A stretch of DNA of 64,000 bases, taken from positions 192,001 to 256,000 of the IMG/VR virus record IMGVR_UViG_3300047469_000103. The stretch is one strand, 5' to 3'. Position numbers and translations under genes: made by a program. Position 1 is the first letter of the stretch. Every line of letters starts with the position of its first letter. The stretch comes from a virus. Lineage: Duplodnaviria > Caudoviricetes. The notes under the pieces were generated by a model that worked only from the letters and a program-made list of their open reading frames with translations, made no database searches and had not been told where the DNA came from. Below, in pieces: positions 22,009-63,139 of this stretch.

Positions 22009-24333
22009 TTACACGTATTTAATGGAGTAATTATCTGTACGCGGCGAGAACTGCGGCAACGTGGTTGCCTCACTGCGAACGACAATCCACGGACGCACAC
22101 CAGTTCCGTCGTCGAATTGCACGGTCATAGTTTTCGGCAAGTTCGCATCGTAACCCGGCAAGCCTTCTTCGTTACCAATTACATCGTTGCGGTAATTGAT
22201 ACCGTCGAAAGTAACGTTGAAAGAGTTCGCCAAATCGACGATGAAAGTGCTGCCAGCGCGAGCATCCCACATCAGGTAAACGTATTCGTCTACAGTGATT
22301 GTAGTGGTGATGTTTTTCGCAATGCCATCCGTTGCAATATCCAACGTATTTGTCATTACATCCGAAACGAAATCGGTGAAGCCTGTCCAGTGGGTGTACT
22401 GCTTACCGGACGCCGAAGTTTCGTCGGTCACACCGTAGTCGCGTTCGTCTTGAGTGATTTCGCTGACGATTGGGCCACCAGTGAAATTCACGTTGGAGAA
22501 CATTGCTACGCCGTAACGCAGTGGCGGAATTACAACAGAAGCAGTTTGAATAACAATTGCTTTTGTTGCGTTCAATACCACGCCGTCTTCGGTGTAGTTT
22601 GCGCGAATGCTTACGTTGCCATTCTGCACGCCGGTAGCTTCACCCGCTGCGTCGATTGTGGCTTTCGTTACATCCGAGGTACTCCAAGTGGTCGGAGCTT
22701 TATCGACGTGCGAGCCGTCAGCGTAAGTCACGGTGTAAACATAAATCGCTTTGCCCAAAGGAGCGAGCGTAGCAACACCGGAAATTGCAGCGGAAACAGG
22801 CCAGTTTTTCGTGTCAGCAATTGCGATAGTTTTCTTCGCAGTAACAGTCACGCCGTTTTGAGTAAACGAAACGTTCACTTCAACGGTTTTGCTACCCGGC
22901 ACAGTCAGCGGCTTCGCAGTCAGCAAACCATTTTGGTCAATTGTTGCGTAGGTGCTGGAAGTTACCGACCAAACACCAGCCACGTTACCGTTTGTGGAAT
23001 CCGAGAAAGAAACCGCAGCGTTCAAGTCGATGGCAGCATTTTGATCGACGGAATTAGCGCCGATAATTGCAACGCTATTCGGATAAACCAGCGGGTCTTT
23101 AATCGTCACGGCAACGGTTGCTTGGCGAGTCACGCCGCCTGTTGCATAAGTTGCAGTCAGGCTGGTATTAACGTCGCGAACCTGATTCACTTTCGGAGTC
23201 AGCACGCCAGCGGTGAAAGAACCCGCATTTGTGTTGCTCGAAACAAAAGCGTTCGGCGTAACAACGTTTGTCGAACCGTCAGTGAAATGCGCAACCACGG
23301 TGTAAATGCCGGTTTCCGATTTCAGGAACTGAGTCGGGCCAACAATTTCGATATGGTCGAGAATTACCAACGTCGGATCACCAATAATGGTAATCACAAA
23401 ATCCTGATAAACAGTAACGCCAGAATCAGGATGTGTCCACGATGCGCGAACAGTTACCGGAGTATCGACGGCAACCAAACCAGCTTTAAACACACCGGTA
23501 TTTGCACCGATTTCTGCGTGGTCTTGATTATCGCGAAGTGTCCACGTTGCTTTAACGCTGAAAAACTTCGTGCCATCGTCCATCGTTACATCGGCACGCA
23601 GAACGTGATTCGATGCACCGGGAACATGAACAGCAGGGCCGACAACAGCAATGCCAGTTGGCAGCGGGCCGACGTATGCAAATTCGGTTGTCGCGGGCAT
23701 CCACTGTGCAATCCAGTTTCCGTTTTCATCGGCGCCGGTAACAAACAGCAATTCACCGTTTTTCGGATCACTACCGATTACGCTCACGAATTTATCGGAG
23801 CCGTCACCAGCAGCCAACATCGTGCGCGGAATATCAGGGTGCGAATGCGGACGCGGGGCACGTGGATTCGACATGCGAATATCGTTATCACCAACGACAA
23901 CGCGATCACCCGGAGGCAGCAGCGAATCGAAAGAGGTTTCGAAACCGCCGTAACGATTTACCGAAGCGAGGCCCGGCAAAAAGTCCTGAATTTCACCCAA
24001 GATCGGATCGGATTCTTTTTTGAAGTATTGAACTTCTTCAAAGATTTCGTCGATGGACGAAAGCACCGACCACGAACCGCGATAGTCTTTATCGTCGTAT
24101 TTTTCAGCATCAACACGACGCATCAAAACTTTGTAGTCTTCGTGTTCTGGATTTGCGTTAATCCAAGTCACGTTGTAAGGAACGGTGAGGGTATCCGGTT
24201 CAAGAAGTGAAACGAGGACAACGAATTGTTTTCCGTTGCCCTCGATCAGAATCTCAACCGGGTTAAAGCGAGACAGACCGCGATACTGCAAAGCAATCGC
24301 AATTTTCTCGTCGATAAACTCGGTCAAAGTCAT
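22009..24333 (-). CDS. Virion/fibre-associated protein: collar-like N-terminal domain plus Ig-like repeats
   Basis: N-terminal domain homologous to 24343..24987, followed by 4-5 Ig-like repeats (W........I..G.LT). Confidence 0.75.
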   Translation of the reverse strand: MTLTEFIDEKIAIALQYRGLSRFNPVEILIEGNGKQFVVLVSLLEPDTLTVPYNVTWINANPEHEDYKVLMRRVDAEKYDDKDYRGSWSVLSSIDEIFEEVQYFKKESDPILGEIQDFLPGLASVNRYGGFETSFDSLLPPGDRVVVGDNDIRMSNPRAPRPHSHPDIPRTMLAAGDGSDKFVSVIGSDPKNGELLFVTGADENGNWIAQWMPATTEFAYVGPLPTGIAVVGPAVHVPGASNHVLRADVTMDDGTKFFSVKATWTLRDNQDHAEIGANTGVFKAGLVAVDTPVTVRASWTHPDSGVTVYQDFVITIIGDPTLVILDHIEIVGPTQFLKSETGIYTVVAHFTDGSTNVVTPNAFVSSNTNAGSFTAGVLTPKVNQVRDVNTSLTATYATGGVTRQATVAVTIKDPLVYPNSVAIIGANSVDQNAAIDLNAAVSFSDSTNGNVAGVWSVTSSTYATIDQNGLLTAKPLTVPGSKTVEVNVSFTQNGVTVTAKKTIAIADTKNWPVSAAISGVATLAPLGKAIYVYTVTYADGSHVDKAPTTWSTSDVTKATIDAAGEATGVQNGNVSIRANYTEDGVVLNATKAIVIQTASVVIPPLRYGVAMFSNVNFTGGPIVSEITQDERDYGVTDETSASGKQYTHWTGFTDFVSDVMTNTLDIATDGIAKNITTTITVDEYVYLMWDARAGSTFIVDLANSFNVTFDGINYRNDVIGNEEGLPGYDANLPKTMTVQFDDGTGVRPWIVVRSEATTLPQFSPRTDNYSIKYV

Positions 24334-24992: not shown

Positions 24993-26633
24993 TTAAGCCT
25001 CGGTAAAGGTCATGGAAGAACCGAAATTGCGAATGTCAGCAGTCAGGGAAGCACGGCTGGCTGGAATTTCCGGGTCGATTACGAAATCAATCGCCATATC
25101 GTTATTCGCGATTACTTCGGCGGTGTTGTTTCGTTCGTCACAGATGGTTTCCCAATCGTTGATACCGCGACCACGTTTCACTTTCGCCGCTTCAGCGTCT
25201 ACGATGCTTTTCAGTTGATCCCGTTCGTATTTATCGTTCGGGTTGAAAACAGACGGCAGGAACGCTTTACGAATCAGCGTTTTCACACCGTTAACCAGAC
25301 GACGCACGTTGACGTATTGGAAACCGGATTCGAAGTTTTGCAGTGTGAGTTGTTCGAAAATCACAAAGCCACGTTTCGGAATACGGCGGATGTAGTTAAT
25401 CTGCGATTGTTGCAGCGCGTTACGCTCTTGCAGATTGTATTTCCGGTTCAGGTTGGTGACTTTCAACTGACCACGGTTAATACCAGCCGGTGCCCAGTAG
25501 TACGCCTTCACGCGGTCGGTGTACGCATAAGCTGCGGCAACCAAACCAGACGGCGGACACATGAATTTACGACCGGAAACGTCATCGGTGATTTCCACAA
25601 ACGGGCCATACAGCGCGCCGTAAGAATTGGAAATGTTCAGAATGTTTCGGCGGTAATTAACAGCCTTCGAAACTTCTTCGAATTCTGTAGGCAGGTCAAC
25701 AATTGCCATTGCGTCACCGCGCTTTTCAGCGACGGAAACCATGTGCTGCTGAATATACGGCGAAGTGTAACCACCGTTAATCAGAATTTGCACCGCGTAA
25801 TCGTCGGTATTGTCGATGCCATCCCACGAGGAAATGATATCGGAATCTACGCAACGATTGCCATCCGCGCCACCGTCGAGGGTTTCGAAAGTAGAAGTGC
25901 GAATATCAATCAGCGGGCAAAGTGGGTTGTTTTTCACTTTGATGAATTTCGAGTTGCCGTTAATGCGCGACTCGACAAACATTTGCTGTTGCATGCCATC
26001 GAGTTCTGCGGTTCGGCTGCACAGATAGGATTCCAGCGGAATCGAACCGTTGCCTTTGTAATCTTTGAAAACTTCGACGTAGAAATGTTTCGGGTTGCTG
26101 AATTCCCCGACAGATGTACCTTGCTGGTTTGCTGGACGCACGCGAACAGAAATGCTGCTCGACCATGCACCCGGCGAAGTGGCACAGAAAAACATCAGAA
26201 CGTTTTCAACGCCCGGTGTGCCAACGGTAAAACCGATTTCGTTAATTGGATTGCCGAGAACACCTTTTGGAGTGTTATCGCCATTGTCGAAATTCACCAG
26301 TTTCAAAACCGGCTCCATTGCCGCATTATCGTCCACGGACAAATAAGCGCCAGCGGTCAATGCAGTTTTTACGTCAACTGCACGTTTGATGTACATGCGT
26401 GATTCGGTGAGAAACTGCTCAGCACAGTGCATGCCGAAGCCGAATTTCGCAAAGTTTTTAATACCGAATTTGGTTTTCAAGTCCTGTTTATCAGTGACCA
26501 GTGTCCATTCTTCGGTGCTACCCATTTGCGATTCGACCACCATTGCACCAATGGAGCTAATCACCGTACCGCCGCGCTGGCTCAGGTCGTTATCCTGATC
26601 GTAAACGCCAGCACTCGTATTAGGAAATGCCAT
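24993..26633 (-). CDS. Tail sheath protein 2
   Basis: Start trimmed to MAFPNTSAGVY (AAGGGG SD). R.DAMAIVD, YWAPAG.NRG, QINYI, VNVRRL, VFNPND. Confidence 0.92.
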   Translation of the reverse strand: MAFPNTSAGVYDQDNDLSQRGGTVISSIGAMVVESQMGSTEEWTLVTDKQDLKTKFGIKNFAKFGFGMHCAEQFLTESRMYIKRAVDVKTALTAGAYLSVDDNAAMEPVLKLVNFDNGDNTPKGVLGNPINEIGFTVGTPGVENVLMFFCATSPGAWSSSISVRVRPANQQGTSVGEFSNPKHFYVEVFKDYKGNGSIPLESYLCSRTAELDGMQQQMFVESRINGNSKFIKVKNNPLCPLIDIRTSTFETLDGGADGNRCVDSDIISSWDGIDNTDDYAVQILINGGYTSPYIQQHMVSVAEKRGDAMAIVDLPTEFEEVSKAVNYRRNILNISNSYGALYGPFVEITDDVSGRKFMCPPSGLVAAAYAYTDRVKAYYWAPAGINRGQLKVTNLNRKYNLQERNALQQSQINYIRRIPKRGFVIFEQLTLQNFESGFQYVNVRRLVNGVKTLIRKAFLPSVFNPNDKYERDQLKSIVDAEAAKVKRGRGINDWETICDERNNTAEVIANNDMAIDFVIDPEIPASRASLTADIRNFGSSMTFTEA

Positions 26634-26707
26634 GAAAAGAACCCCTTGTATGGTTGGTATACGGGAATATGAGAGAGCAAATCCCAAAAGAAATGCCATT
26701 CCACTAT

Positions 26708-27543: not shown

Positions 27544-28313
27544 AGAATACTCATTAAGTCCTGTTTGTCACTGCGCTTGCTGTTTAAGAACAAAGCAAAC
27601 TGCATAGTCATTCGAATCTTTTCCGCGAAGAACGTAACCGGGTCAGCCCCGTTAACTACAACGATGCGCGGAATGTGGTCATACTTCTCCAATAAGTCTC
27701 TGACTTTTTCAATCTTTTGCGGAGTGGAATCTGGCCCGACATTCGCAATGATTAACATGGAGATATTTCGTCTTACTTTTTCGTCACGCAAATCATCCTG
27801 ATAACCGCCCATGACTCGGTGCCAAACCGGCAGCAGTCGGCCTTTGTGTGAACCACTGCGCTGCTGTTCAATTGCCGAATCCATGAAACTCATTGCCAGA
27901 AACTTTGCGCGATCATCCGTTGCCATTGAACCGATTCCAATAATAGGCGAACCGTGCAAAGGATTTGTCAGCATTCGGTGACAAGTATCAATCTGCCTTT
28001 TCACACTTGTTTTCGGCAAGTGATAATCTTCAGGCAACCATTTCGGAACAAATGGCGTAATGGAAACCAGTGCATCGTCAAGCAGAAACGGACTGCGCAT
28101 GACTTGCAAAGCGCTACCATCAACGCCTTGGTTTTTTAATGTCTTTACGCGATCCGAATCAAAGCGGAATTTCAAGTGAGGTGCTGGAATGCGAAGGACA
28201 GGTGCAAATGTCTTCTTCGATTTTTTCATCCCGGCGACAGGTTCCACTTTCTTTTTAGTGCCCTTGAGTTTTGTCACCGGTTCCGTTTTCTTTATCGTCT
28301 TTAACTCTTTCAA
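27540..28313 (-). CDS. Degenerate DnaC/IstB-like AAA+ fold protein
   Basis: MLIIANVG...IEKVRDLLEKY..IPRIVVVN parallels DnaC LLIiDDlG...l..ii..R...PtIiTTN, but Walker A GKT and Walker B acidic residues are missing. Confidence 0.5.
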   Translation of the reverse strand: MKELKTIKKTEPVTKLKGTKKKVEPVAGMKKSKKTFAPVLRIPAPHLKFRFDSDRVKTLKNQGVDGSALQVMRSPFLLDDALVSITPFVPKWLPEDYHLPKTSVKRQIDTCHRMLTNPLHGSPIIGIGSMATDDRAKFLAMSFMDSAIEQQRSGSHKGRLLPVWHRVMGGYQDDLRDEKVRRNISMLIIANVGPDSTPQKIEKVRDLLEKYDHIPRIVVVNGADPVTFFAEKIRMTMQFALFLNSKRSDKQDLMSIL

Positions 28314-28974
28314 GGTCTGGACTCTCGGAAGGGTGGGTTTGATACTTCTTTACAGTATTCGAAGTGCCGAATATACGTTCGTTGCATTGCTCGTAATACA
28401 ACGCCGTCTCTGCGGGCGTCAGGCTTTCCAACGTGACGACTTCACCGGTAACAGGGTGATGGATATTAGGCAAGAAAAACTCTTGTGTTTCCTGCTTCGA
28501 CAATTGCTCAAGAAGCATGCGCCCGTAGGGATTATCCGGCATATCAATAATCTGCTGCGAAAGCGTTTTCACTCGGTTTTCAATGTACGCCGTGATTTCA
28601 TGTTCGGGTCGCAGGAACAGCGGAAGTATGTGCGCTTCGTCAATCATTTCCTGATCGAAAAAACCACCGGGCGGCATAGAGCAACCACGACTGAATTTAG
28701 GTGGCATCATTTCTTCAGTGATTTTCCAGTCGTGCCCAATCGGTGGGCGTTTACGCACGAATTCTTCTTCGTCGTTTTCTGCACACACTTCCACGCCCGG
28801 TTCGAAATAGGCACGGTTGTAAAGTTTGCGCCCGGTATTAAAAATGACTTCACGTTCGTATTCAAGGGGAGCGCCAATCACAATAGCCTGTCCCATGAAT
28901 TCGTAATTAACGTGCGTGACGTATTCGCCGGGAACCATCGGGTGGCCGAGGTCAAATGGTTTATCGGAAGACAT
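28255..28974 (-). CDS. Hypothetical protein
   Basis: 239 aa ORF in operon context. Confidence 0.7.
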   Translation of the reverse strand: MSSDKPFDLGHPMVPGEYVTHVNYEFMGQAIVIGAPLEYEREVIFNTGRKLYNRAYFEPGVEVCAENDEEEFVRKRPPIGHDWKITEEMMPPKFSRGCSMPPGGFFDQEMIDEAHILPLFLRPEHEITAYIENRVKTLSQQIIDMPDNPYGRMLLEQLSKQETQEFFLPNIHHPVTGEVVTLESLTPAETALYYEQCNERIFGTSNTVKKYQTHPSESPDLERVKDDKENGTGDKTQGH

Positions 28975-29323
28975 TTAGCAATTCCTTTTCCGCTTCGAAT
29001 TCTTCACGCGTAGGCATTTGCGCCACTTGCGTTTCGTAAGACGTGCCGTCCGAATATTCCACAATGCGCATGATTAATTGGCCGTCGTAATCGTATCGCA
29101 GGCCAGTGACAATTCGTCCGTAATCATGCGTGACGATAACGTGGCATTCACCATTTGAACACCAGCGGATTTCTTCGCCCGCTTTCAGCTTTGGAACTGA
29201 GGTTAGGCCGGACGCGTGAATGCCGACTTTCTTGGACGTTGCAGCGCATTGCAAATAATCCACTTCGCGCATTTCAACGCCGTTCGAAGTGCGGACTGCC
29301 ATAGTGCGAGGAAACTGATTCAT
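28961..29323 (-). CDS. Hypothetical protein
   Basis: 120 aa ORF with AAGGA SD and overlaps at both ends. Confidence 0.7.
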   Translation of the reverse strand: MNQFPRTMAVRTSNGVEMREVDYLQCAATSKKVGIHASGLTSVPKLKAGEEIRWCSNGECHVIVTHDYGRIVTGLRYDYDGQLIMRIVEYSDGTSYETQVAQMPTREEFEAEKELLNVFR

Positions 29324-29454
29324 TTGAATTCCTTTTTGTGGCGCAGCGCTCGACGTTGGGCGCGATTCAAGACGGGCGGCGGATTATCAGTGTCGTCGCA
29401 TACGCAGCCGAATTCATACCATCCGCATTTTGTGCATTTCTTTTCAGTACCCAT
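29320..29454 (-). CDS. Small Cys-rich protein (44 aa), not in ORF track
   Basis: MGTEKKCTKCGWYEFGCVCDDTDNPPPVLNRAQRRALRHKKEFK. Fills the gap exactly, with an ATGA overlap onto the next gene. Confidence 0.65.
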   Translation of the reverse strand: MGTEKKCTKCGWYEFGCVCDDTDNPPPVLNRAQRRALRHKKEFK

Positions 29455-29677
29455 CTGGAGTATCCAGCGGATGTGGAATTTTCAACTCAAGCAAACGGTC
29501 ACGCATTCCCCTGTCGAAATCGCCGTAGTCAATTGCAGGATCGCACAAGTGCCACAGTTCTTTCATGCGGATTTTATCCTCACCGAAATTCGCGTAGGAT
29601 TTGTCCACGTAATCACGCCCAGCCTGTCGAACTTCAGCCGGGGTTTTAATGCCAAGGAGATTGCGTAACCATTGCAT
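29444..29677 (-). CDS. Hypothetical protein
   Basis: 77 aa ORF in operon context. Confidence 0.7.
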   Translation of the reverse strand: MQWLRNLLGIKTPAEVRQAGRDYVDKSYANFGEDKIRMKELWHLCDPAIDYGDFDRGMRDRLLELKIPHPLDTPDGY

Positions 29678-29680
29678 GAG

Positions 29681-31375
29681 TTATTTTCCAATACGTTTTT
29701 GTTTACCCTTCTCGAAACTCATTTTCTTTTTCGAGTAACGGTCTTCTTTTGCGTCATTGCGCTTGTTGTGAATCGAAGCAGCGATACCGCCGAACAAGCC
29801 ACCGGTAGGCATACGCGCAATTGCGCTCGTTTCTGTTTCAGCATCGACTTCTTCGTAACTTATGTCACGCTTTACATTTTTCAGCCATTTGCCCATCCGC
29901 TCCAATGCAACCGGCGTCGGCGTGTGGTTAAATTCAACTGCCTGATTCCACGTGTTCGAACAATACTTCAAAGAGGCGTTCGCTTTAGTGTCTACAAAGA
30001 ATCGAATAATCGGCTGACGTTTTGCAGGATCAGGTGTGAGAATACGCGAGCTTTCCTGTTTCCAGTTCGGTTCGTTATTCATCGGCATGACGTAGTAAAG
30101 ACACGACCACGGTTTGATGTTGATACCGCGCTGCAACAGACGACGAATCCCGACAACCACGCGGATTTTACGCTCGCCCGCTTGCTGCTTAATCCAGTCG
30201 CGACGTTCTTTGTTTTTCTTCGGATTGCTACCGCCAGTAAATGCTGCGGCAACCTCATAACCGACACGATCATTAATCCGTTTTACCAGTTCTTCGATGT
30301 GGTCTTTGAAGTGGCACGGAATAACGATGGAATGTCCGGCTTCCAAATCTTTCATAACCCAATCAATAATCAGGTCATTTCGTTTCTTGTGCTTCGCGAG
30401 CATTTTGCCGAGGAACACAAAGCCCGGTTTCCCTTTGAACGCACCTTTCGATTTCACACCCGTATCAACGGCTAGCAATTTCGCTACCATTTGACCACGT
30501 TTGATTTTCGACTTCACTTCACCAATTACAAGCGCGGTGATGATGTGCTTTCCGTCCTTCCGGGTTTCCGTACCAGTGCAACCCATACGCACGCGCATTT
30601 TCATGCTGTTCATTACGTCAGCGAATTCAGGCGCACCGGTGGCCTGTACTTCGTCCACAATTACGGTGCCGAAAACTTTGTTCACCTTCGCCAAGAATTT
30701 CCGACCTTTCGGACTCAGAAAAGACTGGTAGGTGATGATCCCGATTTGAATGTCTTCGAGGTCTTTTGCTGTCTTGATAAATCCGAAAAGTTTCTTCCCG
30801 GTTTTCTTCTCAAGTGCAGGTAGGTTCGTGCTTTCGCGAATGTCCCCAAGGAACTGATTCAGGAAGTCATATTGGTCAGCGATCAACAGGACTTTGTAGC
30901 CCAGTTCGATTGCGATTTTTAACGCGGTCAAAGATTTACCAGAACGCGGCGGAAGCACGAAAAGGCCGTACTTGGCCTTTTTCATTTTCTCCACGGTTTT
31001 CAATTGGTACGAATACCAGTCGCGGTCTTCGCCCAAACTGATTTTAATCTTGTAGTCAAATGGAACGCGGGTTCGCTTATCCACGACGGTGTAATCATCG
31101 AAGTCGATTTTCATCTTTTCTTCGATGTTGTTTCGGTCGCCCATCGGCAGACCGATATATTCGATGTTCCCAAAAACACGCTTGTTAGCAAGTTGGTAAG
31201 AGCCGTTGAAATTCTCACAGCCCTTACACTCAGGCACGGGACGTTTCGGGCGGAAGTCACAGGACTTGCAGCCGAAGTCCGAAAAGAAGTTTTTAAAATA
31301 TTCCTTCTTTACCCGCTTCTCGCTAAGATCAATGCTCGGCACATAGAACTTATCCGATACGATTATTTTTCCCAT
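29681..31375 (-). CDS. Superfamily 2 helicase (UvsW-like)
   Basis: LPPRSGKS Walker A, IVDEVQ motif II, GCTGT..RKDG motif III, RGINIK, SRILTP. N-terminal CxxC...CxxC. Confidence 0.9.
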   Translation of the reverse strand: MGKIIVSDKFYVPSIDLSEKRVKKEYFKNFFSDFGCKSCDFRPKRPVPECKGCENFNGSYQLANKRVFGNIEYIGLPMGDRNNIEEKMKIDFDDYTVVDKRTRVPFDYKIKISLGEDRDWYSYQLKTVEKMKKAKYGLFVLPPRSGKSLTALKIAIELGYKVLLIADQYDFLNQFLGDIRESTNLPALEKKTGKKLFGFIKTAKDLEDIQIGIITYQSFLSPKGRKFLAKVNKVFGTVIVDEVQATGAPEFADVMNSMKMRVRMGCTGTETRKDGKHIITALVIGEVKSKIKRGQMVAKLLAVDTGVKSKGAFKGKPGFVFLGKMLAKHKKRNDLIIDWVMKDLEAGHSIVIPCHFKDHIEELVKRINDRVGYEVAAAFTGGSNPKKNKERRDWIKQQAGERKIRVVVGIRRLLQRGINIKPWSCLYYVMPMNNEPNWKQESSRILTPDPAKRQPIIRFFVDTKANASLKYCSNTWNQAVEFNHTPTPVALERMGKWLKNVKRDISYEEVDAETETSAIARMPTGGLFGGIAASIHNKRNDAKEDRYSKKKMSFEKGKQKRIGK

Positions 31376-53210: not shown

Positions 53211-54647
53211 TTAACCGAACGAAGCTTTTTTGTTACCGGACTTCTTCGGAACAGCGCCACCTTTCGGTTTAGAGGCTGCTTTCGGAGCGGCCTTTGGAGC
53301 GGCCTTTGGAGCGGCTGCTTTTTTCACAGCGGCTTTAGTACCGGCTTTACCCGGTGCAGTTTTACCGGCTGGGGCTTTCAACGAAGTTTTGCTACCGTTG
53401 GAAGTTTTCTTGGCCGGTGCGGCTGCTTCGGTTTTTGGCTTGGCTGGACGGCCACGCTTTTTCGGAGCGGCTGCGGCTGGTGCGGCTTCGGTTTTTGGCT
53501 TGGCTGGACGGCCACGCTTTTTAGCCGGTGCTGCTGGTGCTGCGTCAGCTTTTGGTTTTGCAGGACGACCGCGTTTTTTGGCTGGAGCGGCTGGAGCAGC
53601 AGCTTCAGTTTTTGGTTTCGCTGGACGACCACGTTTTTTCGCTACTGGAGCCGGTGCAGCAGCTTCAGTTTTTGGCTTGGCCGGACGACCGCGCTTTTTA
53701 GCGGCTGGAGCAGCAGCCGGGGCGGCAGCTTCAGTTTTTGGTTTTGCAGGACGACCGCGTTTTTTCGCAACTGGGGCCGGAGCGGCATCAGCTTTTGGTT
53801 TTGCAGGGCGACCGCGTTTTTTCGCTACTGGTGCAACTGGGGCAGCATCAGCTTTTGGCTTGGCTGGACGGCCACGCTTTTTGGCAGGTGCAGCTTCAGC
53901 GGCTGGGGCAGCAGCAGGGACTTTACGAGCTTTTTTCACAGCACCGCCGGTTTTGCCGAAGTGCTTAGTCGAAATAGCCGAAGTTTCTTTTGCAGCAGCT
54001 ACTTTCGCAGCAGCGGCTTTCTTCGGATCAATCGTTTTCAGACGCTTGCCTTTCTTGGAGATTGGCTTGGCGCTGAAATTGCCGATGAAGTCTTTCAGGC
54101 GGAAAACACCACGCTTGGCAGAAGCAGCTTTGATTTTGCCGAGAGTTTTCTGGTGAGTTTTCACCGCTTTCATACGCTCGCCAGCCAGAGTCTTACGCTC
54201 GGAAGCGTAACGTTGCTTTTCAGCAGCGCGCATTTTCATACGAACGGCTGGGGCAACCTTGGCGGTACGGATTTTCATCAGTGCCTTTTTGTGGGCGCTG
54301 GAAACGGCTTGCGATTTTGCTTTCAGTTGGCCGCGAACGGATTTCTGAGCAGTAACAGCCTGACGTTTCTGTTCGGAAGCGTGCTTACCAGCGTGGCGCA
54401 TTTTGCGGTTCTTTTTGTAGGCCGCAACAGCTTTTTTCGCTTCAGCTTCGGTAGCACCGTGACGCATGGCGCGAAGGAATACCACGTTTTCCAAGTGCGC
54501 CAGTTTTTCACCGTGCGACATGGTTTTGTAGCGGTTCTTCGACGCCTTGTTCAGCTTCGATTTGTTTTTGTTGCGGTATTGTTTGGCCTTTTTGGCGGCG
54601 ATGCGCGCCTCGGGGCTTTTGTCCTTACGGACGACTTTCGTGACCAT
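53211..54647 (-). CDS. Histone H1-like Lys/Ala/Pro-rich protein with 8 AT-hooks
   Basis: 8 copies of KKRGRPAKPK separated by Ala/Pro linkers, and a PKAA-rich tail. Confidence 0.85.
   Translation of the reverse strand: MVTKVVRKDKSPEARIAAKKAKQYRNKNKSKLNKASKNRYKTMSHGEKLAHLENVVFLRAMRHGATEAEAKKAVAAYKKNRKMRHAGKHASEQKRQAVTAQKSVRGQLKAKSQAVSSAHKKALMKIRTAKVAPAVRMKMRAAEKQRYASERKTLAGERMKAVKTHQKTLGKIKAASAKRGVFRLKDFIGNFSAKPISKKGKRLKTIDPKKAAAAKVAAAKETSAISTKHFGKTGGAVKKARKVPAAAPAAEAAPAKKRGRPAKPKADAAPVAPVAKKRGRPAKPKADAAPAPVAKKRGRPAKPKTEAAAPAAAPAAKKRGRPAKPKTEAAAPAPVAKKRGRPAKPKTEAAAPAAPAKKRGRPAKPKADAAPAAPAKKRGRPAKPKTEAAPAAAAPKKRGRPAKPKTEAAAPAKKTSNGSKTSLKAPAGKTAPGKAGTKAAVKKAAAPKAAPKAAPKAASKPKGGAVPKKSGNKKASFG
53430..53885 (-). 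repeat. Tandem repeats of about 57-66 bp encoding AT-hook units
   Basis: Repeated ggacggccacgcttttt / ggacgaccgcgttttt on the plus strand with synonymous variation. Coordinates approximate. Confidence 0.9.
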
Positions 54648-54743: not shown

Positions 54744-55793
54744 TCACGAGGCCGAAATGCCCAGCCGGGCACAAGCCTTTTTAACTTCTTTTCGACCGGC
54801 TTTAATCATTTCTTTATCAAAGCCTTCTGCCACCATGAACTCTTTTAAACCAAACATTGGATCAATATCAATGTTTTCCACTTTAATTGATTCATCTTCG
54901 GAAACATTCGATTTTTTCGCACCAGCTTTATGAATGCCACCGGTAATGTTTGGGTATTGAATCATCAGGTCGGCTGGAATAGGAACGTCTTCAGCTACGT
55001 GCAGCTTGTAACGAACGTTATCTGCATAAACCAGTTTCTTGTAATCATTGAGGTCATTAATCTCAACGTTCTGCAAAGTAAAGTTTGGTTTGTTTTCAAC
55101 GAACTTATGTTGGAATGCAACCCGGTTTCCATCCATGCTGGCTTTAAAATGAATAAAGCCTTTTGGCAATGCTTCACCAAAGTTTTTCTGGAATGGATTA
55201 CCGCAATAAACGGCCCGCTTTGCTTTCATGAATTGGTATTGGTGAATATGCCCGGAAATAGTGAAATCGTTTTTGTGGGTTTCCAATTCATGTTTGGTTT
55301 TCAATGAACGACCATTGTCACCAATTGCGCCGCTGTATTCAACGTGCGCAAAGTTTAATGCACCCTGTTTAGTGGACAGGGTTTTCAGGCATGGATACGG
55401 CAGGAAATTCACCGGTACGTTTTCGATTACAACGCGTTCCGGTTTCAGGATGATTTTCAGACGCTTAAACGCTTTCGACGTTGCCAGCTTGTGCATGAAA
55501 TTCATCGACGTATTTTCGATATCACCGAAGTCATGGTTGCCCATGATGTAATACGTGTAAAGGTTTTCATCGTGACGCAAAAACAAATCGTACAGCTTGC
55601 CGTAGGTATCCCAATCGAGGTCAGGTGTATCAGACAAATCGCCGGGAATAAATACGTGTTTAATACCGTTGCTATACGCGTACTGATAAATCTTTTCCAT
55701 TTCCGCCAAGATGCGATCATTTGCATCGGGGAAATGTTTGTTCAAACCGTCAAGGTGAACGTCAGAAAATGCAATGCCTTCAAGATCAGCCAC
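54744..55793 (-). CDS. Mre11/SbcD-like metallophosphoesterase nuclease
   Basis: SDVH, PGDLSD, MGNHD, FAH, SGHIH, YCGNP.Q..FGE motifs. Confidence 0.93.
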   Translation of the reverse strand: MADLEGIAFSDVHLDGLNKHFPDANDRILAEMEKIYQYAYSNGIKHVFIPGDLSDTPDLDWDTYGKLYDLFLRHDENLYTYYIMGNHDFGDIENTSMNFMHKLATSKAFKRLKIILKPERVVIENVPVNFLPYPCLKTLSTKQGALNFAHVEYSGAIGDNGRSLKTKHELETHKNDFTISGHIHQYQFMKAKRAVYCGNPFQKNFGEALPKGFIHFKASMDGNRVAFQHKFVENKPNFTLQNVEINDLNDYKKLVYADNVRYKLHVAEDVPIPADLMIQYPNITGGIHKAGAKKSNVSEDESIKVENIDIDPMFGLKEFMVAEGFDKEMIKAGRKEVKKACARLGISAS

Positions 55794-56550: not shown

Positions 56551-56907
56551 TCACCGTAGTTTGATTACTTGGCCGGGGAAGATCAGGTGTGGATTTTCCA
56601 GATTGTTCAACGTAGCGAGAGTGCGCCACGAATGGCCGGTGCCTTCACCGATGTGCGAGAGCGTATCGCCTTCTTGCACAATGTACATGCCGTATTCTTT
56701 CGACACCGCATAACGCAGTTTTTTCTTCAGCGTTTTCAGTTCTTCGCCGGTGATTTCGTGGATTTCCAGACCATGCGCAGTGTGGCGAGCGACGGTATCT
56801 TTAATCGCATGATTTGCAGCAACGATTGTTGCGCCCGGTGACACAGAGATTTTGCCGTCCGTGTTGATATTCACATTACCGGCAGAAATATTGACTTCGG
56901 TATTCAT
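56551..56907 (-). CDS. LysM domain protein
   Basis: YIVQEGDTLSHIG....SWRTLATLNNLENPHLIFPGQVIKL. Start trimmed to MNTEVN (ATGA overlap). Confidence 0.92.
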   Translation of the reverse strand: MNTEVNISAGNVNINTDGKISVSPGATIVAANHAIKDTVARHTAHGLEIHEITGEELKTLKKKLRYAVSKEYGMYIVQEGDTLSHIGEGTGHSWRTLATLNNLENPHLIFPGQVIKLR

Positions 56908-57269
56908 GAGATTGCAGGTGCCTCGTCGATTTTCAGTTCTTCGGGAGTTTTGATATTCCGTGCGGCCCACATACTGGCACGCAGGCGATTCAAACCTTCG
57001 ACACTCATTTGATCTTGCGCATAACTTTCTTCGGTGTGGAACGGATGATCGACGTGGCCGATAGTGCCAACATTCGGAAATTTCTTACCGAACTTTTGCA
57101 GCTTGGCTTCTTCGTCGAGATTGCGAATGTGCTGATTGAACTGGCGCAGCATTTGGTCATAAGCGGCACGCTGATAAACATATGCGTTTTGCGGTTCGAA
57201 ATTCCCGAGGTTTGCTTGCTGGATACAGTGCGCCAGAAACTTTACGGGCGGGCGAATTGGGATAGCCAT
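56904..57269 (-). CDS. Small protein carrying the EF-Tu N-terminal decapeptide [10 protein letters not shown]
   Basis: AAGGA SD. Motif encoded at 57045-57074. The rest of the protein does not resemble EF-Tu. Confidence 0.8.
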   Translation of the reverse strand: [121 protein letters not shown]

Positions 57270-57281
57270 GACGGTTCCTTG

Positions 57282-57752
57282 TTAATACGAATGTGTGAAA
57301 TTCAGCGTGTAACGTTTGCCGTGAACACGAGCGAGACGCTGGCTACGGAATTCGATTTCGACGTTCGCAATACCCGTGTGATAAATCAGGGTAGCGCCGC
57401 GCTTGTGGGAGCGAACCGAAAAACGTTTGTAATCTGGCGGATTGTTAATTGCGCCGTACCAGTTCTGCATGAATTTGTGTGCGGCGTTCGATTGCTCGAA
57501 ATAGCTGTGTGACGAAACCGGTTTTGATGGTTTACGCTCGTGGAAAATCGAACCTGTTTCTTTGTCCGCATTCAGCGTAACGTTCATCATCTGCGAAGGG
57601 AATACGCCGGGGTGACGGGCGTTAACTTCGAACAGCGGCATGCCGTCAAATTCAATCGTCCATTTCTGCGCTGTTTCTTTTGGTGCAACGTTGCCAATCC
57701 ACACGTGACCGGTAACGTCCATCAAATTCGCTGGTGAACTTTGCTCTACCAT
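57282..57752 (-). CDS. Paralogue A of the [FY]RSxRxA[RK] C-terminal family
   Basis: SHKRGATLIY...EFRSQRLARV. Confidence 0.7.
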   Translation of the reverse strand: MVEQSSPANLMDVTGHVWIGNVAPKETAQKWTIEFDGMPLFEVNARHPGVFPSQMMNVTLNADKETGSIFHERKPSKPVSSHSYFEQSNAAHKFMQNWYGAINNPPDYKRFSVRSHKRGATLIYHTGIANVEIEFRSQRLARVHGKRYTLNFTHSY

Positions 57753-58204
57753 CCCCGTCTTCCTATGCCGTGTTTTTTCATATCCACGCGGGCTTCACGC
57801 GCAGAACGATATTCGTACCAATAAGTCGTGCTGGTATTGTCTTTCGGGTTACGTTCCCAAACATAAACCATAACTTTTCCGCGACGATGCACGAGCGAGT
57901 AAATGTATTTCGTTTGGTATTTCGGATTCGGTTGATACACGTCGCAGATAATTGAAATTCCGGTCAACGTGCCTATGCTTCCGGTCAACAGTGGCGCAGT
58001 GTCAACGGGAACCGGTTCGACTGTTTCAGCAGCGCCCGTACCGTAATGCGCTTCACATGGCCGCGCTGGTAATGACCACGGATAATCCATCGGCATTGTG
58101 TAGATGCCACCGCCTTTTTTCATGCGCGGTAATTCGTTACGCTGTTCTGTACAGCGCACGTTTTCCAATTCACTTAAAACCCATCCTTTCATCCCGTCCA
58201 TCAT
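57746..58204 (-). CDS. Paralogue B of the [FY]RSxRxA[RK] C-terminal family
   Basis: VHRRGKVMVY...EYRSAREARV. Start trimmed (ATGA overlap). Confidence 0.7.
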   Translation of the reverse strand: MMDGMKGWVLSELENVRCTEQRNELPRMKKGGGIYTMPMDYPWSLPARPCEAHYGTGAAETVEPVPVDTAPLLTGSIGTLTGISIICDVYQPNPKYQTKYIYSLVHRRGKVMVYVWERNPKDNTSTTYWYEYRSAREARVDMKKHGIGRRGW

Positions 58205-58560
58205 GCCTGTGCCTCTACCGGTTTTGGTTTCCACAACTTGGCAAACTTCAGAACGTTCGGCACGTTGTCAGATTCAACCGGGAGGATAACCAGACAGGAA
58301 GGCTGTGCATCGCAAATTGTGTTCTCGTGGCCTTCGTGGCACACCAGAGTTTCACGAATTTTATCAAACTCGCGACGGTTCACACGCAGCACAACTTTAC
58401 GGAAAGAATCGTTCAACCATTTGTGATAGCAAAGGAACTCTGCGTCTGGCCGAAGTGGCGATGCGAATCTTATATGTGCCGTCAGAATCGAATGCGCAAC
58501 CAGCGTCGGCACCATGTAGTCGGGAGCGTCGTCGAGGACTGCGATGTACATCTTTTTCAT
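58201..58560 (-). CDS. Peptidyl-tRNA hydrolase type 2 (Pth2)-like protein
   Basis: KMYIAV..D.P......VAHS......W....FRKVVLRV..........E.T.....CLVILP follows the Pth2 fold pattern. Confidence 0.65.
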   Translation of the reverse strand: MKKMYIAVLDDAPDYMVPTLVAHSILTAHIRFASPLRPDAEFLCYHKWLNDSFRKVVLRVNRREFDKIRETLVCHEGHENTICDAQPSCLVILPVESDNVPNVLKFAKLWKPKPVEAQA

Positions 58561-58871
58561 TTCTTCGCCCTTCTATTTTTGATCCAGACCTTCGCGGTAC
58601 GCAGGCTACGGAATTTCAGAACGCTACCCTTTGGCAGCAACAGGAAAACAATCGCGCCCCACTTCGACGAATACACAGACGCGTAATCCCACGCAAGTTT
58701 TTTCCATTCGTCTTCGGGAACCTGCATCGCGTCAATGCGCGCAACAGCACGGCGATTGCGACGGTATTCAGTTTCGAGTTTTGCTTGAGGCAGACGGGTT
58801 TGGTACAACTTCAAAAGCGTCATGCCATCATCGCGAACCATGCTACGCAAATCCCAATTCTGAGTCGTCAT
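58557..58871 (-). CDS. Paralogue C of the [FY]RSxRxA[RK] C-terminal family
   Basis: SSKWGAIVF...KFRSLRTAKVW. Start trimmed (ATGA overlap). Confidence 0.7.
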   Translation of the reverse strand: MTTQNWDLRSMVRDDGMTLLKLYQTRLPQAKLETEYRRNRRAVARIDAMQVPEDEWKKLAWDYASVYSSKWGAIVFLLLPKGSVLKFRSLRTAKVWIKNRRAKK

Positions 58872-59200
58872 TTTATAGATGCCCTGAATTCTTTTACCCA
58901 CATTTTCGCATAGCGACGGGAACGGAATTTCGTAACCTGTCTGATCGGGTAGATCGTGTGGACGTTAACGCCGCGACGGTGCGAGCTAACGAGGGCTACG
59001 CGCTTCAGCGAATCCATCATTTGCTTCTGTTTCACGCGTGCGAATTCTACAAAGCGTGCATTCGATACAGCCATTTGTGCAGCGTAAGACGACGTGTCTA
59101 CTGCACCGTTTAAAAACTCTTCAGACAGGCCCAGCGCTGCCAGCTTCTGTCGGTTCATTTCTTCCAGAGTCGGATTGTCCACTTGCGTGTTCCTTTTCAT
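58868..59200 (-). CDS. Paralogue D of the [FY]RSxRxA[RK] C-terminal family
   Basis: SHRRGVNVHTI...KFRSRRYAKMW. Start is ATG 59200 or TTG 59209. Confidence 0.7.
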   Translation of the reverse strand: MKRNTQVDNPTLEEMNRQKLAALGLSEEFLNGAVDTSSYAAQMAVSNARFVEFARVKQKQMMDSLKRVALVSSHRRGVNVHTIYPIRQVTKFRSRRYAKMWVKEFRASIK

Positions 59201-59432
59201 GGCGGGCAATCGCCTCTGTAATAAAATTCAGAGCGTAGCAATTTGCGCGCACGTAATTGTAACCAGCGTAACCGTCGGAGAATACAACCAGAGCCGGGTA
59301 CGATTTCGGGTAGCCTTTGATATCTGGTTTGCTGTCGCTGTTCCAGAATTCTTTGGCCGCTTGTTTGAAGCCTGCTTGCGTCCGCACGATGTACAGGCAC
59401 GGCGTAAGTTTTTCGCGATTATCTGTAATCAT
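59121..59432 (-). CDS. Hypothetical protein
   Basis: 103 aa ORF with an ATGA overlap. Confidence 0.7.
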   Translation of the reverse strand: MITDNREKLTPCLYIVRTQAGFKQAAKEFWNSDSKPDIKGYPKSYPALVVFSDGYAGYNYVRANCYALNFITEAIARHEKEHASGQSDSGRNEPTEAGSAGPV

Positions 59433-60655: not shown

Positions 60656-60839
60656 GGCGCATCCGGGCTTCGTTAATGGCACGATTACTATCGACGATGG
60701 TTTCCATCATGGCCGTAGGACTCATGCGCCAGCGTGGAATAACTACGTCGGTTTGAATTTTCACGCCACCGGGCAACGGCAGTTCCGCCGCTACTCGCCA
60801 GCCGATTTTCTCTTCGTTACATTTCCATTGAATTTTCAT
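60633..60839 (-). CDS. Hypothetical protein
   Basis: 68 aa ORF with an ATGA overlap onto the Rad50 stop. Confidence 0.65.
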   Translation of the reverse strand: MKIQWKCNEEKIGWRVAAELPLPGGVKIQTDVVIPRWRMSPTAMMETIVDSNRAINEARMRHEQFCKH

Positions 60840-63139
60840 TGTTCAAGCTTCACTCTTGAAACGCCTTTGTGTTTCTCGACAGTCACGTAACTGCAATCGC
60901 TGTGAACGTGTTTGCCCTTTTGTGTAATCAGGAAAACATGCGGCACAAGGGTACGCAGGAACGGAATGTAACGATCAGCAAAAAGCGTGATTGTTGTTTC
61001 GTCCATGTGTGCATCTGGTTCGTCGAGGATCGCGATGTTAACCCGTCGATCAGCCTTCGCCATAATCACGCAAGCGAGGAAGTGCAACAGACGGAAACTA
61101 TCGGATTCTGCGCCGGACAATTCACGAACGTCGGATACGTTGCCGTTGCCCCGGTCAACGATGATATGCACGCCATCGTCTTTTGCCACTACGTTGAACT
61201 TGAATGGCTCAGCGAAAATCAAGTTGGCAAATCGGTTGTAATGTTGCTCCAACTGATAAACGATTTGGTGCATCGCGTGCAGCTTCAAGCCCTTGTTGCT
61301 GTAGGCTTTCGACATTGCTTTGTACAACTGCAATTTCTTTGTCAGCGGTTCCAGCTTTTCAATCTCACCGCTGATTTGATCGCGTTGTTTCGACAGCAGT
61401 TTGAATTCAGCGCGACGGCTACCGTGCTTGACGGAAATCTCATACGCTTTTTCGTATTTCTTTTCGACCTTCTTCAGCTTGGCGGCAGTCTCTTCTAGCT
61501 CGGCGGTCAAGCCTTTGTCTTCTGGCACTTCTTCGAATTCAGCAAGGCGCTCTTTCAGCGCTTTGATTTCATCGAGGATTTCAACCTGTGCTTCGATTTG
61601 TTCCAGCGTGAGTTTGACAGAAACTTTAGGCGCTTTCGGCTTCTTCAGTTCGGACATTTGCTCAGTGATTTCGTCAAAGCGTGCAGCGTTTTCCAGCTTG
61701 TCGGTCAGCGTCTCAAGTTCTTCGTTAGACTTCTTCAGAGTCTTTTTCAGCGCGTAATAATCACGCTCGTTAAACTTGAGTTTTTCGATGATCGCTTTGT
61801 TGGTCGTGCGCGTCTCACGGATTTCGAAAGCGTGAATCATCGACAGCAGCAAACCTTTACGCTTCTTCGCAGCCTTCAGACTTTTCTCAAGGTCTTTCAG
61901 GTTGATTTTCTGCATACAGGTCGGGCAGTTGCCGTCGTCGTGTTCGTGCAGCAAGTCAGAAAGTTTCAGCGTGGTTTTCACCATGCCTAATTCTTCCTTC
62001 ATTTCTTCCATCGGATCAAGCTTTTGCTTATTGCAACGACTCAAGAAGCTGCGCAGTTCTGGCTCAGTGTGATCGTCGAGGTTTTCCAGTTCCCGCACGG
62101 CTGCGTCGAATTCATCGCGGACTTTTGTCTGCCGCTTGTATTCAACTTCCATCGTTTCAATTTCAGCACGCAATTCTTTGACGCGTTTCTTCAGCTTTTT
62201 ACCGCCGCCGCAATCGCCAAGTTCTTCCAGCTTTTTCGTTAGGCGCTTGGCAGTTTTGGTATAGGTGTCCAACTCTTCGTGATACGACTCGGCTGCCTCA
62301 AGTTCTTTGTACATCGCCTTCAATTCTGGCTTTGTATATTTCGCTTTCTTTTGCAGCTTCGCCAGCTTCGACTTTGCAGACGCATAAAATTCCACTTGCT
62401 TCATGAGCGAGCGGAGTTCCTGTGTGCGGGTCTGCAATTTGGTAACTTTCTTGGCCTGAGATTTCACAACCTCGGTGGCTTCGTCGAGTTCCTTTTGGCG
62501 GTGTCGATTCCAACCATTTTTATTCAGCGCGTCATTCGTGTTAAGCAGGTTTTTGCTATGCACGTCGGCTTTGTTCTGCGCGATCTTGACCGCATCAACT
62601 TGCTTGTCGAAATACTTGCGCAGAATATCGAATTGATCCAGTCGCCACACGGCAGTGATATACGACATACGCGTTCGCGCCGTGCCATACATAAAGTCGA
62701 GTTTTTTCTGCGACTGGAGGTGAACGTAGGAATACCATTCATCCGAGGTCAGCGGAATAATCTTTTCGATCCATTCGCGCTGTGCAGCTTGACCACGGAC
62801 TTCCAAATCGGTGCCATCGCGGATGATTTTGTAGCCGCTTCCGCTTTGGCGAATCGTCCATTTGTGCCCGAGGTTTTCCACGTCGATTTCGATATGGGAA
62901 CCTTTCGAGTGAATCCGGTTTTTCTTGCGAGTATCTGCCAACGGCATTTGTTCAAAACGCACGTTGGGCAGCATGCCAAACAAAACAGATTTACCGGCGC
63001 CGTTGTTGGTCTTCTTTGAAATCAGAGAGTCACGGTTGTGGCCGCTTACAACGGTGAAGCCACAGTTATTCGTGAAATCAAATGCACCTTCTTTGTACGA
63101 TACAACGCCATTGAAACGACTGCCGGTAATATCAATCAT
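60836..63139 (-). CDS. Rad50/SbcC-like ABC ATPase
   Basis: NGAGKS Walker A, Q-loop VHLQ, coiled coil with CPTC zinc hook, LSGAE signature, ILDEP Walker B. Confidence 0.95.
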   Translation of the reverse strand: MIDITGSRFNGVVSYKEGAFDFTNNCGFTVVSGHNRDSLISKKTNNGAGKSVLFGMLPNVRFEQMPLADTRKKNRIHSKGSHIEIDVENLGHKWTIRQSGSGYKIIRDGTDLEVRGQAAQREWIEKIIPLTSDEWYSYVHLQSQKKLDFMYGTARTRMSYITAVWRLDQFDILRKYFDKQVDAVKIAQNKADVHSKNLLNTNDALNKNGWNRHRQKELDEATEVVKSQAKKVTKLQTRTQELRSLMKQVEFYASAKSKLAKLQKKAKYTKPELKAMYKELEAAESYHEELDTYTKTAKRLTKKLEELGDCGGGKKLKKRVKELRAEIETMEVEYKRQTKVRDEFDAAVRELENLDDHTEPELRSFLSRCNKQKLDPMEEMKEELGMVKTTLKLSDLLHEHDDGNCPTCMQKINLKDLEKSLKAAKKRKGLLLSMIHAFEIRETRTTNKAIIEKLKFNERDYYALKKTLKKSNEELETLTDKLENAARFDEITEQMSELKKPKAPKVSVKLTLEQIEAQVEILDEIKALKERLAEFEEVPEDKGLTAELEETAAKLKKVEKKYEKAYEISVKHGSRRAEFKLLSKQRDQISGEIEKLEPLTKKLQLYKAMSKAYSNKGLKLHAMHQIVYQLEQHYNRFANLIFAEPFKFNVVAKDDGVHIIVDRGNGNVSDVRELSGAESDSFRLLHFLACVIMAKADRRVNIAILDEPDAHMDETTITLFADRYIPFLRTLVPHVFLITQKGKHVHSDCSYVTVEKHKGVSRVKLEQ

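Follow-up and report, generated by a model that had tools for sequence, protein, structure and literature searches.

A central place in bacterial conflict is emerging for EF-Tu, on which Lit, type IV Thoeris, TreTu, and Avs7 converge. Lit cleaves it at the G59-I60 site, the caspase of type IV Thoeris also cleaves it (R45, R59), and Avs7 recruits it or has it built in. Recognition of elf18 by EFR requires the acetylated N-terminus of EF-Tu, and Doc requires its residue T382. TreTu, an ADP-ribosyltransferase toxin of the Rhs type from Salmonella, modifies EF-Tu exactly at D21, a residue with an exposed side chain (PMC9825190). The toxin recognizes the folded, GTP-bound form of EF-Tu, including helix D, and once EF-Tu is bound to the ribosome the side chain of D21 is enclosed by 23S G2655, C2658, and G2659, in a pocket of the sarcin-ricin loop region (PMC9825190). 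TreTu is the only published factor we found that acts inside the EF-Tu decapeptide considered here, i.e. residues 14-23 of the E. coli protein.

Our full-text search of the literature returned no paper on phage proteins carrying the EF-Tu segment formed by strand beta-1 and the P-loop. Family A corresponds to phrog_12626 and includes proteins of the Erwinia phages Huxley (gp203), Machina, ChrisDB, Asesino, and phiEaH2, with a short form, phrog_28329, in SPN3US-like Salmonella phages (SPN3US gp074). Its profile aligns with EF-Tu residues ~10-54 (E = 1.6e-6) with GKT replaced by SRS, and some of its genes are labeled "putative elongation factor Tu" or "GTPase" in GenBank. The family A genes located here (L094:142-471, L095:4992-5318, L091:379-705, L097:3001-3333 for Huxley gp203, and L096:2989-3198 for SPN3US gp074) follow an SMC/SbcC-like gene and a GNAT acetyltransferase gene, and a macro-domain gene lies four genes on. 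An AF2 model of family A has a pLDDT of 44 and is unusable. Another family, phrog_27465, holds IMG/VR mini-proteins and a 59-aa protein of Vibrio phage henriette 12B8 (VPDG_00052, at L098:2489-2668), the latter with GKP instead of GKT.

The gene described here encodes a protein, P0001, and lies in a 64-kb stretch of viral DNA (the window, which designates the whole stretch analyzed) with every gene on the minus strand. Judged from its sequence, the window phage is a Lu11/HRDY3-like, Pseudomonas-type jumbo myovirus. P0001 sits among small genes between sbcC and sbcD, in a block whose content differs between Lu11, HRDY3, and the window phage. The features of this island are as follows.

60836-63139, minus strand: SbcC-like ATPase, upstream border of the variable island (68% identity to Lu11, 66% to HRDY3)
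58201-58560, minus strand: weakly PTH2-like gene (phrog_5822), co-directional, three genes upstream of P0001 (sub-threshold Pfam match)
57282-57284, minus strand: TAA stop of the gene preceding P0001, 12 nt ahead of the P0001 ATG
57275-57280, minus strand: Shine-Dalgarno-like AAGGAA, 5 nt 5' of the P0001 ATG (read from the sequence)
56904-57269, minus strand: P0001 gene, 121 aa plus TGA stop, a small conserved accessory protein
56551-56907, minus strand: LysM-domain gene, 118 aa, directly downstream of P0001 (Pfam and synteny)
54744-55793, minus strand: SbcD-like nuclease, downstream border of the variable island (synteny with Lu11 and HRDY3)

The ORF at 56904-57269 (minus strand) translates into 121 aa, with a 20-residue stretch that includes the decapeptide at residues 59-78. 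The TGA stop of P0001 overlaps the ATG of the LysM-domain gene as ATGA, and the same LysM neighbor trails the P0001 homologue in contigs L001, L005, L013, and L009. Gene order around P0001 is kept in L001-L005 and L013-L015. The first-pass annotation of this DNA had called one neighbor Pth2-like, for which the match is weak: the product of 58201-58560 scores 17.1 bits against Pfam PF01981 (PTH2; cut-off 23, E = 0.0066), yet spans profile positions 22-111 of 115, and is weakly similar to PDB 1rlk (E = 0.39). Searches with Pfam, PHROG, and PADLOC revealed no ADP-ribosyltransferase, macro domain, or known anti-defense gene beside P0001.

Other features of the window include 4 adjacent small genes (156, 162, 114, and 113 aa; 57282-59209, minus strand), whose translations share a similar basic ending of the form [FY]RS.R.A[RK]. 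Just downstream of sbcD, a 478-aa protein with a very high Lys and Ala content (53211-54647, minus strand) carries ~9 tandem AT-hook-like units (KKRGRPAKPK), and looks like a histone- or HMG-like, DNA-binding protein. Tail-sheath paralogues, both phrog_23, are found ~20 kb apart at 4224-5813 and 24993-26699 (minus strand), and two paralogous tail-like genes of phrog_13325/phrog_14098 are present at 20269-21936 and 22009-24333.

P0001 can be divided into the following parts.

57081-57269, minus strand: N-terminal helical domain, residues 1-63, the sole part common to the distant homologue P0004
57045-57074, minus strand: decapeptide, residues 66-75, equal to EF-Tu strand beta-1 and the first half of the G1/P-loop, including D74, the equivalent of EF-Tu D21
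57042-57044, minus strand: Pro76 in the position of the P-loop Gly, CCG in 7/7 orthologues, which abolishes GxxxxGK[ST]
57003-57041, minus strand: fast-evolving linker rich in His and acidic residues, residues 77-89, with a 5-residue deletion in P0003
56907-57002, minus strand: conserved C-terminal helix (residues 90-104) and tail TPEEL.IDEAP..S (alignment, AF2, and omega)

Residues 66-75 of P0001 are identical to residues 14-23 of E. coli EF-Tu, including the equivalents of H19, V20, D21, and H22. The exact match reported by the first-pass annotation is recovered by phmmer against the PDB, with 10/10 identities to E. coli EF-Tu chains 5i4r_C and 2hcj_A, and the E-value over the whole protein is only 0.3-0.9 because nothing outside these ten residues aligns. 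A "similarly placed upstream KF", noted at the same time, does not hold, as its register differs by two residues from that of EF-Tu K5-F6, and orthologues have L or N in place of F60.

The same annotation had proposed that a Gly-to-Pro change ends the P-loop, so that the protein is not a GTPase, and its sequence bears this out. The P-loop site reads GHVDHPFH, i.e. the G1/Walker A motif GxxxxGK[ST] is absent, and neither G3 (DxxG) nor G4 (NKxD) is found in the 121 residues of P0001. Pfam gives no match at E <= 1, including PF00009 (GTP_EFTU), PHROG HMMs give none at E <= 0.01, and P0001 has no PDB family. PADLOC also returns no match, as expected for a phage gene. Taken together with the conservation of Pro76, these results indicate a module that is predicted to be unable to bind GTP in the canonical manner. 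An AF2 model based on an alignment of 8 sequences has an overall pLDDT of 64, with helices at residues 9-20 and 29-63 (pLDDT 70-87), and residues 64-89, which hold the motif, are modeled as low-confidence coil (pLDDT < 50). Foldseek searches of this model against the PDB, VIA wide, and the ESM Atlas return generic helical-hairpin matches only (best Z 5.2, E > 2).

Homologues of P0001 amount to a handful across very large databases. Four close homologues share 86-92% identity with it, one shares 79%, and one 72% (116 aa); all are on soil-type metagenome contigs with identical gene order. A distant syntenic homologue, P0004 (67 aa), has 37-39% identity over residues 3-67 of P0001, and tblastn of the P0001 N-terminus against its contig L009 gives E = 7e-14. 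P0004 lacks the whole C-terminal half including the motif, since the LysM gene follows directly in L009. The protein thus reads as an N-terminal helical domain with a C-terminal extension that opens with the motif, this extension having been either added or, in L009, lost. Neither a P0001 homologue nor the motif is present anywhere in the Lu11 genome. With P0001 as query, phmmer against a representative library returns P0001 itself, P0004, and one spurious coiled-coil protein, and the language-model search of the Atlas returns unnamed clusters only, all < 0.9. Word-index searches for longer or shorter forms, a search of metagenomes for related loci, and tblastn and megablast against cultured phages all returned nothing. 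The first-pass expectation that orthologues should keep the motif is thus borne out in part: the 7 close orthologues keep it with I/V swaps only, but P0004 is devoid of it and Lu11 is devoid of the gene.

Selection was estimated with the Nei-Gojobori method over the seven orthologues, whose pairwise dS ranges from ~0.5 to saturation (above 2). Omega is 0.08-0.20 for the whole gene, 0.02-0.08 for the motif block (residues 65-76), and 0.25-0.88 for the adjacent linker (residues 77-89), i.e. the dN/dS comparison suggested by the first-pass annotation identifies the motif as the most constrained stretch of P0001, with the lowest dN of the C-terminal half. Among the seven orthologues the only replacements in the motif are I70V and V73I, and its codons vary synonymously. 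The annotation had also placed the differences from tuf codons at third positions, as a sign of selection on the peptide; the 30 motif bases differ from E. coli tufB at 5 positions (25/30 match), all of them third-position and synonymous. Given the low omega, the synonymous-only drift of the codons, and a dS that reaches saturation, the gene is real and it is the peptide, not the DNA, that is under purifying selection, which all but excludes a recent neutral capture of tuf DNA.

How often should such a peptide be expected by chance? We estimate a frequency of ~1e-13 per position, i.e. 0.02 occurrences in a library of 2.4e11 residues, and 0.2 occurrences of the corresponding degenerate DNA pattern in a genome collection of 596 Gb. 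Three collections were scanned for the decapeptide followed by a codon without an initial G. Most matches are bacterial tuf genes of code 25 (with TGA read as Gly) or frameshifted tuf, and several are small non-GTPase phage ORFs. In the genome and metagenome collections, tuf genes reading GHVDH-TGA-KT make up most of the matches (L017-L087, many) and include those of MAGs labeled Absconditabacterales, Absconditicoccaceae, Peribacteria, or Patescibacteria; this reading is a handy marker of code 25.

In IMG/VR, the decapeptide is present at 88 loci in total, of which 37 fall within complete EF-Tu-like ORFs bearing G1, G3, and G4 and 9 are cut by contig ends. The other 42 are small closed ORFs (35-267 aa) without G3/G4, and these form 17 clusters after masking of the motif. 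As a control, we scanned IMG/VR for an equally conserved decapeptide of EF-Tu G3, DCPGHADYVK. It is found at 37 loci, all of them EF-Tu-like genes, and the only two short closed ORFs among these represent truncated genuine tuf sequence. As the G3 control stays within EF-Tu genes, the recurrence is specific to the beta-1/P-loop segment, and does not reflect random tuf fragments in viral contigs. Some of the small motif ORFs retain additional EF-Tu flanks, and some other motif proteins retain an intact GHxDHGK[ST]. It is the buried strand NVGTIG rather than the exposed HVDH that varies least across motif families, and some members lack the Asp or the His (e.g. NVGTIGRVAF in SPN3US gp074 and GHVGH in Vibrio phage 150E35-1). 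The recurrence of the decapeptide on many unrelated small phage proteins means that it very probably has a job.

The proteins that carry the motif are diverse. Family B holds both KHV-motif-GR and RYP-motif-SR forms, and because both flanks exist within this family, the "xP ... P/S" flanks of P0001 can evolve from EF-Tu-like flanks. In Pseudomonas phage PaBG, HP-NVGTVGHIDH-GKA is part of a 267-aa hypothetical protein (L100:8082-8882, minus strand, equal to PaBG 242917-243651, where GenBank annotates two hypothetical proteins); this protein also has VIHVDSLG, which resembles the EF-Tu G3 HVDCPG, 7 residues past the motif, and a strongly basic C-terminal tail. Vibrio phage 150E35-1 encodes a 239-aa degenerate protein with an EF-Tu-like N-terminus and an intact GHGKS (L099:2495-3214), including an ERGITIS stretch that resembles the switch I site cut by Lit. 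An ORF on a viral contig (L088:641-1102) reads FP-NVGTVGHIDH-S and has a canonical Walker A (GSTSGKST) 13 residues later, which places an EF-Tu-like strand just upstream of a genuine P-loop.

HRDY3 carries GKPHI-NVGTVGHIDW(-GL) in an unannotated ORF (L103:1363-1830, HRDY3 ~210155-210622). This ORF, possibly a small gene overlooked in annotation, runs through a gap of 250 nt (210283-210533) flanked by a hypothetical gene and by a 257-aa "DNA polymerase" fragment; an HNH endonuclease is encoded nearby. In the window, the motif is absent from the syntenic position (~28256-29723). Kinship between this ORF and the C-terminal half of P0001 beyond the motif was considered and rejected: the pairs LNRLRAS/LDRVRAC and KTPEEL/KTRKEL are collinear, but 241 of 2000 shuffles reach as high a score, so the similarity is not significant.

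These data bear unequally on the possible origins of the match. An unrelated conserved motif could happen to equal a famous EF-Tu peptide, noticed because very many windows were looked at; the match is indeed restricted to ten residues with unrelated flanks, and the look-elsewhere effect is real over a scan of this size. Yet 42 small non-GTPase ORFs in 17 clusters, from one viral collection, stand against the ~0.02 occurrences expected per 2.4e11 residues and against none for the control, and several of these ORFs keep further EF-Tu flanks. The census therefore largely refutes coincidence, which we regard as extremely improbable. Hardly more credit is due to a recent neutral capture of tuf DNA, the case that the first-pass annotation had named as fatal to its proposal, or to a cryptic mini-GTPase or nucleotide binder. 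Phages do acquire host DNA, and the intact GHxDHGK[ST] of some other motif proteins would suit a binder, but 25/30 bases shared with tufB is roughly the level expected of any synonymous encoding of this peptide, and orthologues have diverged up to dS saturation with the peptide kept. For a binder, the invariance of P76 and the loss of K/T, DxxG, and NKxD argue to the contrary.

Two further explanations accept that the motif is selected and assign it another role. It could be an exapted structural or metal-binding element unrelated to EF-Tu, in which a beta-strand and a His/Asp loop (H72, D74, H75, the His-rich linker, and possibly C15 and H47) form an oligomer or metal site. In every orthologue the motif runs into a His-rich stretch (HPFH, HPHHMEMH), H47 is conserved as far as P0004, C15 is present in the seven close orthologues, and I/V swaps are tolerated in the motif; moreover, the AF2 model gives the motif no partner strand inside the monomer, which suggests intermolecular pairing. 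This explanation, which we consider unlikely but worth keeping in view, fails to explain why 17 unrelated scaffolds keep EF-Tu-specific residues yet lose GK[ST], does not account for a control segment that never recurs, and has to contend with linker histidines that are not positionally conserved. Alternatively, the module could dock P0001 at the factor-binding site of the ribosome or on EF-Ts, and thereby modulate or protect translation. H-x-D-H is the part of the P-loop specific to translational GTPases, D21 enters the 23S sarcin-ricin loop pocket (PMC9825190), and the motif proteins of PaBG, henriette 12B8, L021, and Vibrio phage 150E35-1 have strongly basic, RNA-binding-like tails. The C-terminus of P0001, however, is acidic rather than basic, and specific binding to the sarcin-ricin loop is hardly to be expected of a short loop that lacks a G-domain scaffold. 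We rate such docking as rather improbable, though still as a serious rival.

We therefore hold it very probable that P0001 is a real gene, that its resemblance to EF-Tu is not due to chance, that selection acts at the level of the peptide, and that it is a member of a recurrent class. As to function, the best-supported reading is mimicry of the EF-Tu P-loop face, because the module keeps H-x-D-H, because D21 is both ADP-ribosylated and held in a 23S pocket, and because EF-Tu is cleaved by Lit and type IV Thoeris and recruited by Avs7. What the module retains includes residues specific to translational GTPases (H-x-D-H), and what it has lost is the generic phosphate-binding GK[ST]. P0001 would thus consist of a helical domain, stand-alone in a distant relative, and a C-terminal extension confined to its lineage, which begins with a module derived from EF-Tu (strand beta-1 with the first half of the P-loop) from which the GTP-binding GKT would be deliberately absent. 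Such a protein may display an EF-Tu-like H-V-D-H face that is incapable of nucleotide binding, and could work as a decoy for, or compete for, a factor recognizing or modifying this face (e.g. a D21-directed ADP-ribosyltransferase of the TreTu type). We propose this mechanism tentatively, with the balance somewhat against it. TreTu may need more than a loop of ten residues, some family members lack the Asp or His and the constant part is the buried NVGTIG, P0004 and Lu11 manage without the module, the AF2 model leaves the motif as low-confidence coil, and the genes beside P0001 show no tie to ADP-ribosylation; all of this weighs against a decoy. That P0001 shares only ten residues with EF-Tu also weighs against a strict grafted mimic.

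A broader proposal is that proteins with a dead-P-loop EF-Tu segment form a widespread counter-measure family of target mimics, or are occupants of a ribosomal site, with P0001 being the module fused to a helical domain. We offer this as speculation that is more likely wrong than right. Such mimics would draw off sensors or enzymes by which the exposed H-V-D-H face of EF-Tu is monitored or attacked, for example D21-directed ADP-ribosyltransferases or similar. Dozens of unrelated small phage proteins bearing a recurrent, selected copy of this P-loop strand would indicate something undescribed, which could be a class of EF-Tu-directed defenses or toxins together with a phage antidote, or a new phage route to the translation machinery. 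Whatever the mechanism, the census taken with its control defines a clear, testable class, which spans cultured phages of Erwinia (Huxley, Machina, and Asesino), Salmonella (SPN3US), Pseudomonas (PaBG and HRDY3), and Vibrio (henriette).

How, then, does P0001 compare with the systems already described? Of those linked to EF-Tu in conflict, Lit, Doc, and elf18 had been put forward as relevant context in the first-pass annotation, and we set all three aside, because each acts on or needs other parts of EF-Tu (the G59-I60 site, T382, and the acetylated N-terminus, respectively) and all of these are absent from P0001. TreTu is closer, as it targets the Asp of GHVDH and offers a concrete example of what a P-loop mimic could divert. 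By contrast, its immunity protein, TriTu, blocks the toxin active site and is not an EF-Tu mimic, TreTu needs folded, GTP-bound EF-Tu, and no such toxin is linked here to the window phage or its host.

Compared with EF-Tu itself (tufA/tufB), P0001 has the decapeptide of residues 14-23, with conservative I/V variants in its orthologues, and differs by its lack of GK[ST], G2, G3, G4, and domains II/III. The motif is also internal (residues 66-75) in a helical protein of 121 aa with unrelated flanks. Once the motif is masked, no similarity of P0001 to EF-Tu or to other motif families can be detected, so its descent from tuf is inferred by analogy.

Family A resembles P0001 in several ways: both are small proteins of jumbo phages that combine this decapeptide with a disabled P-loop (SRS for GKT in family A), and both are encoded a few genes after an SbcC/SMC-like gene, with a cell-wall-binding gene close by. 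Family A differs in keeping ~45 EF-Tu-like residues, with KHV upstream and helix alpha-1 downstream, hhalign covers only 15 columns between the two, and the SPN3US form (phrog_28329) has lost HVDH. The phrog_27465 proteins likewise carry the beta-1/P-loop segment with the Thr or Lys of GKT altered, but their copy starts from their own N-terminus, covers EF-Tu residues ~6-35, and is followed by a basic tail, whereas that of P0001 is internal and ten residues long. With no PHROG match, only 15 hhalign columns, and nothing left after masking, P0001 belongs to the functional class and not to phrog_12626, phrog_28329, or phrog_27465. It shows what defines this class, an EF-Tu beta-1 strand joined to the first half of a P-loop whose GK[ST] is altered or lost, and is, as far as sequence comparison can tell, the most reduced of the proteins that bear the EF-Tu P-loop.
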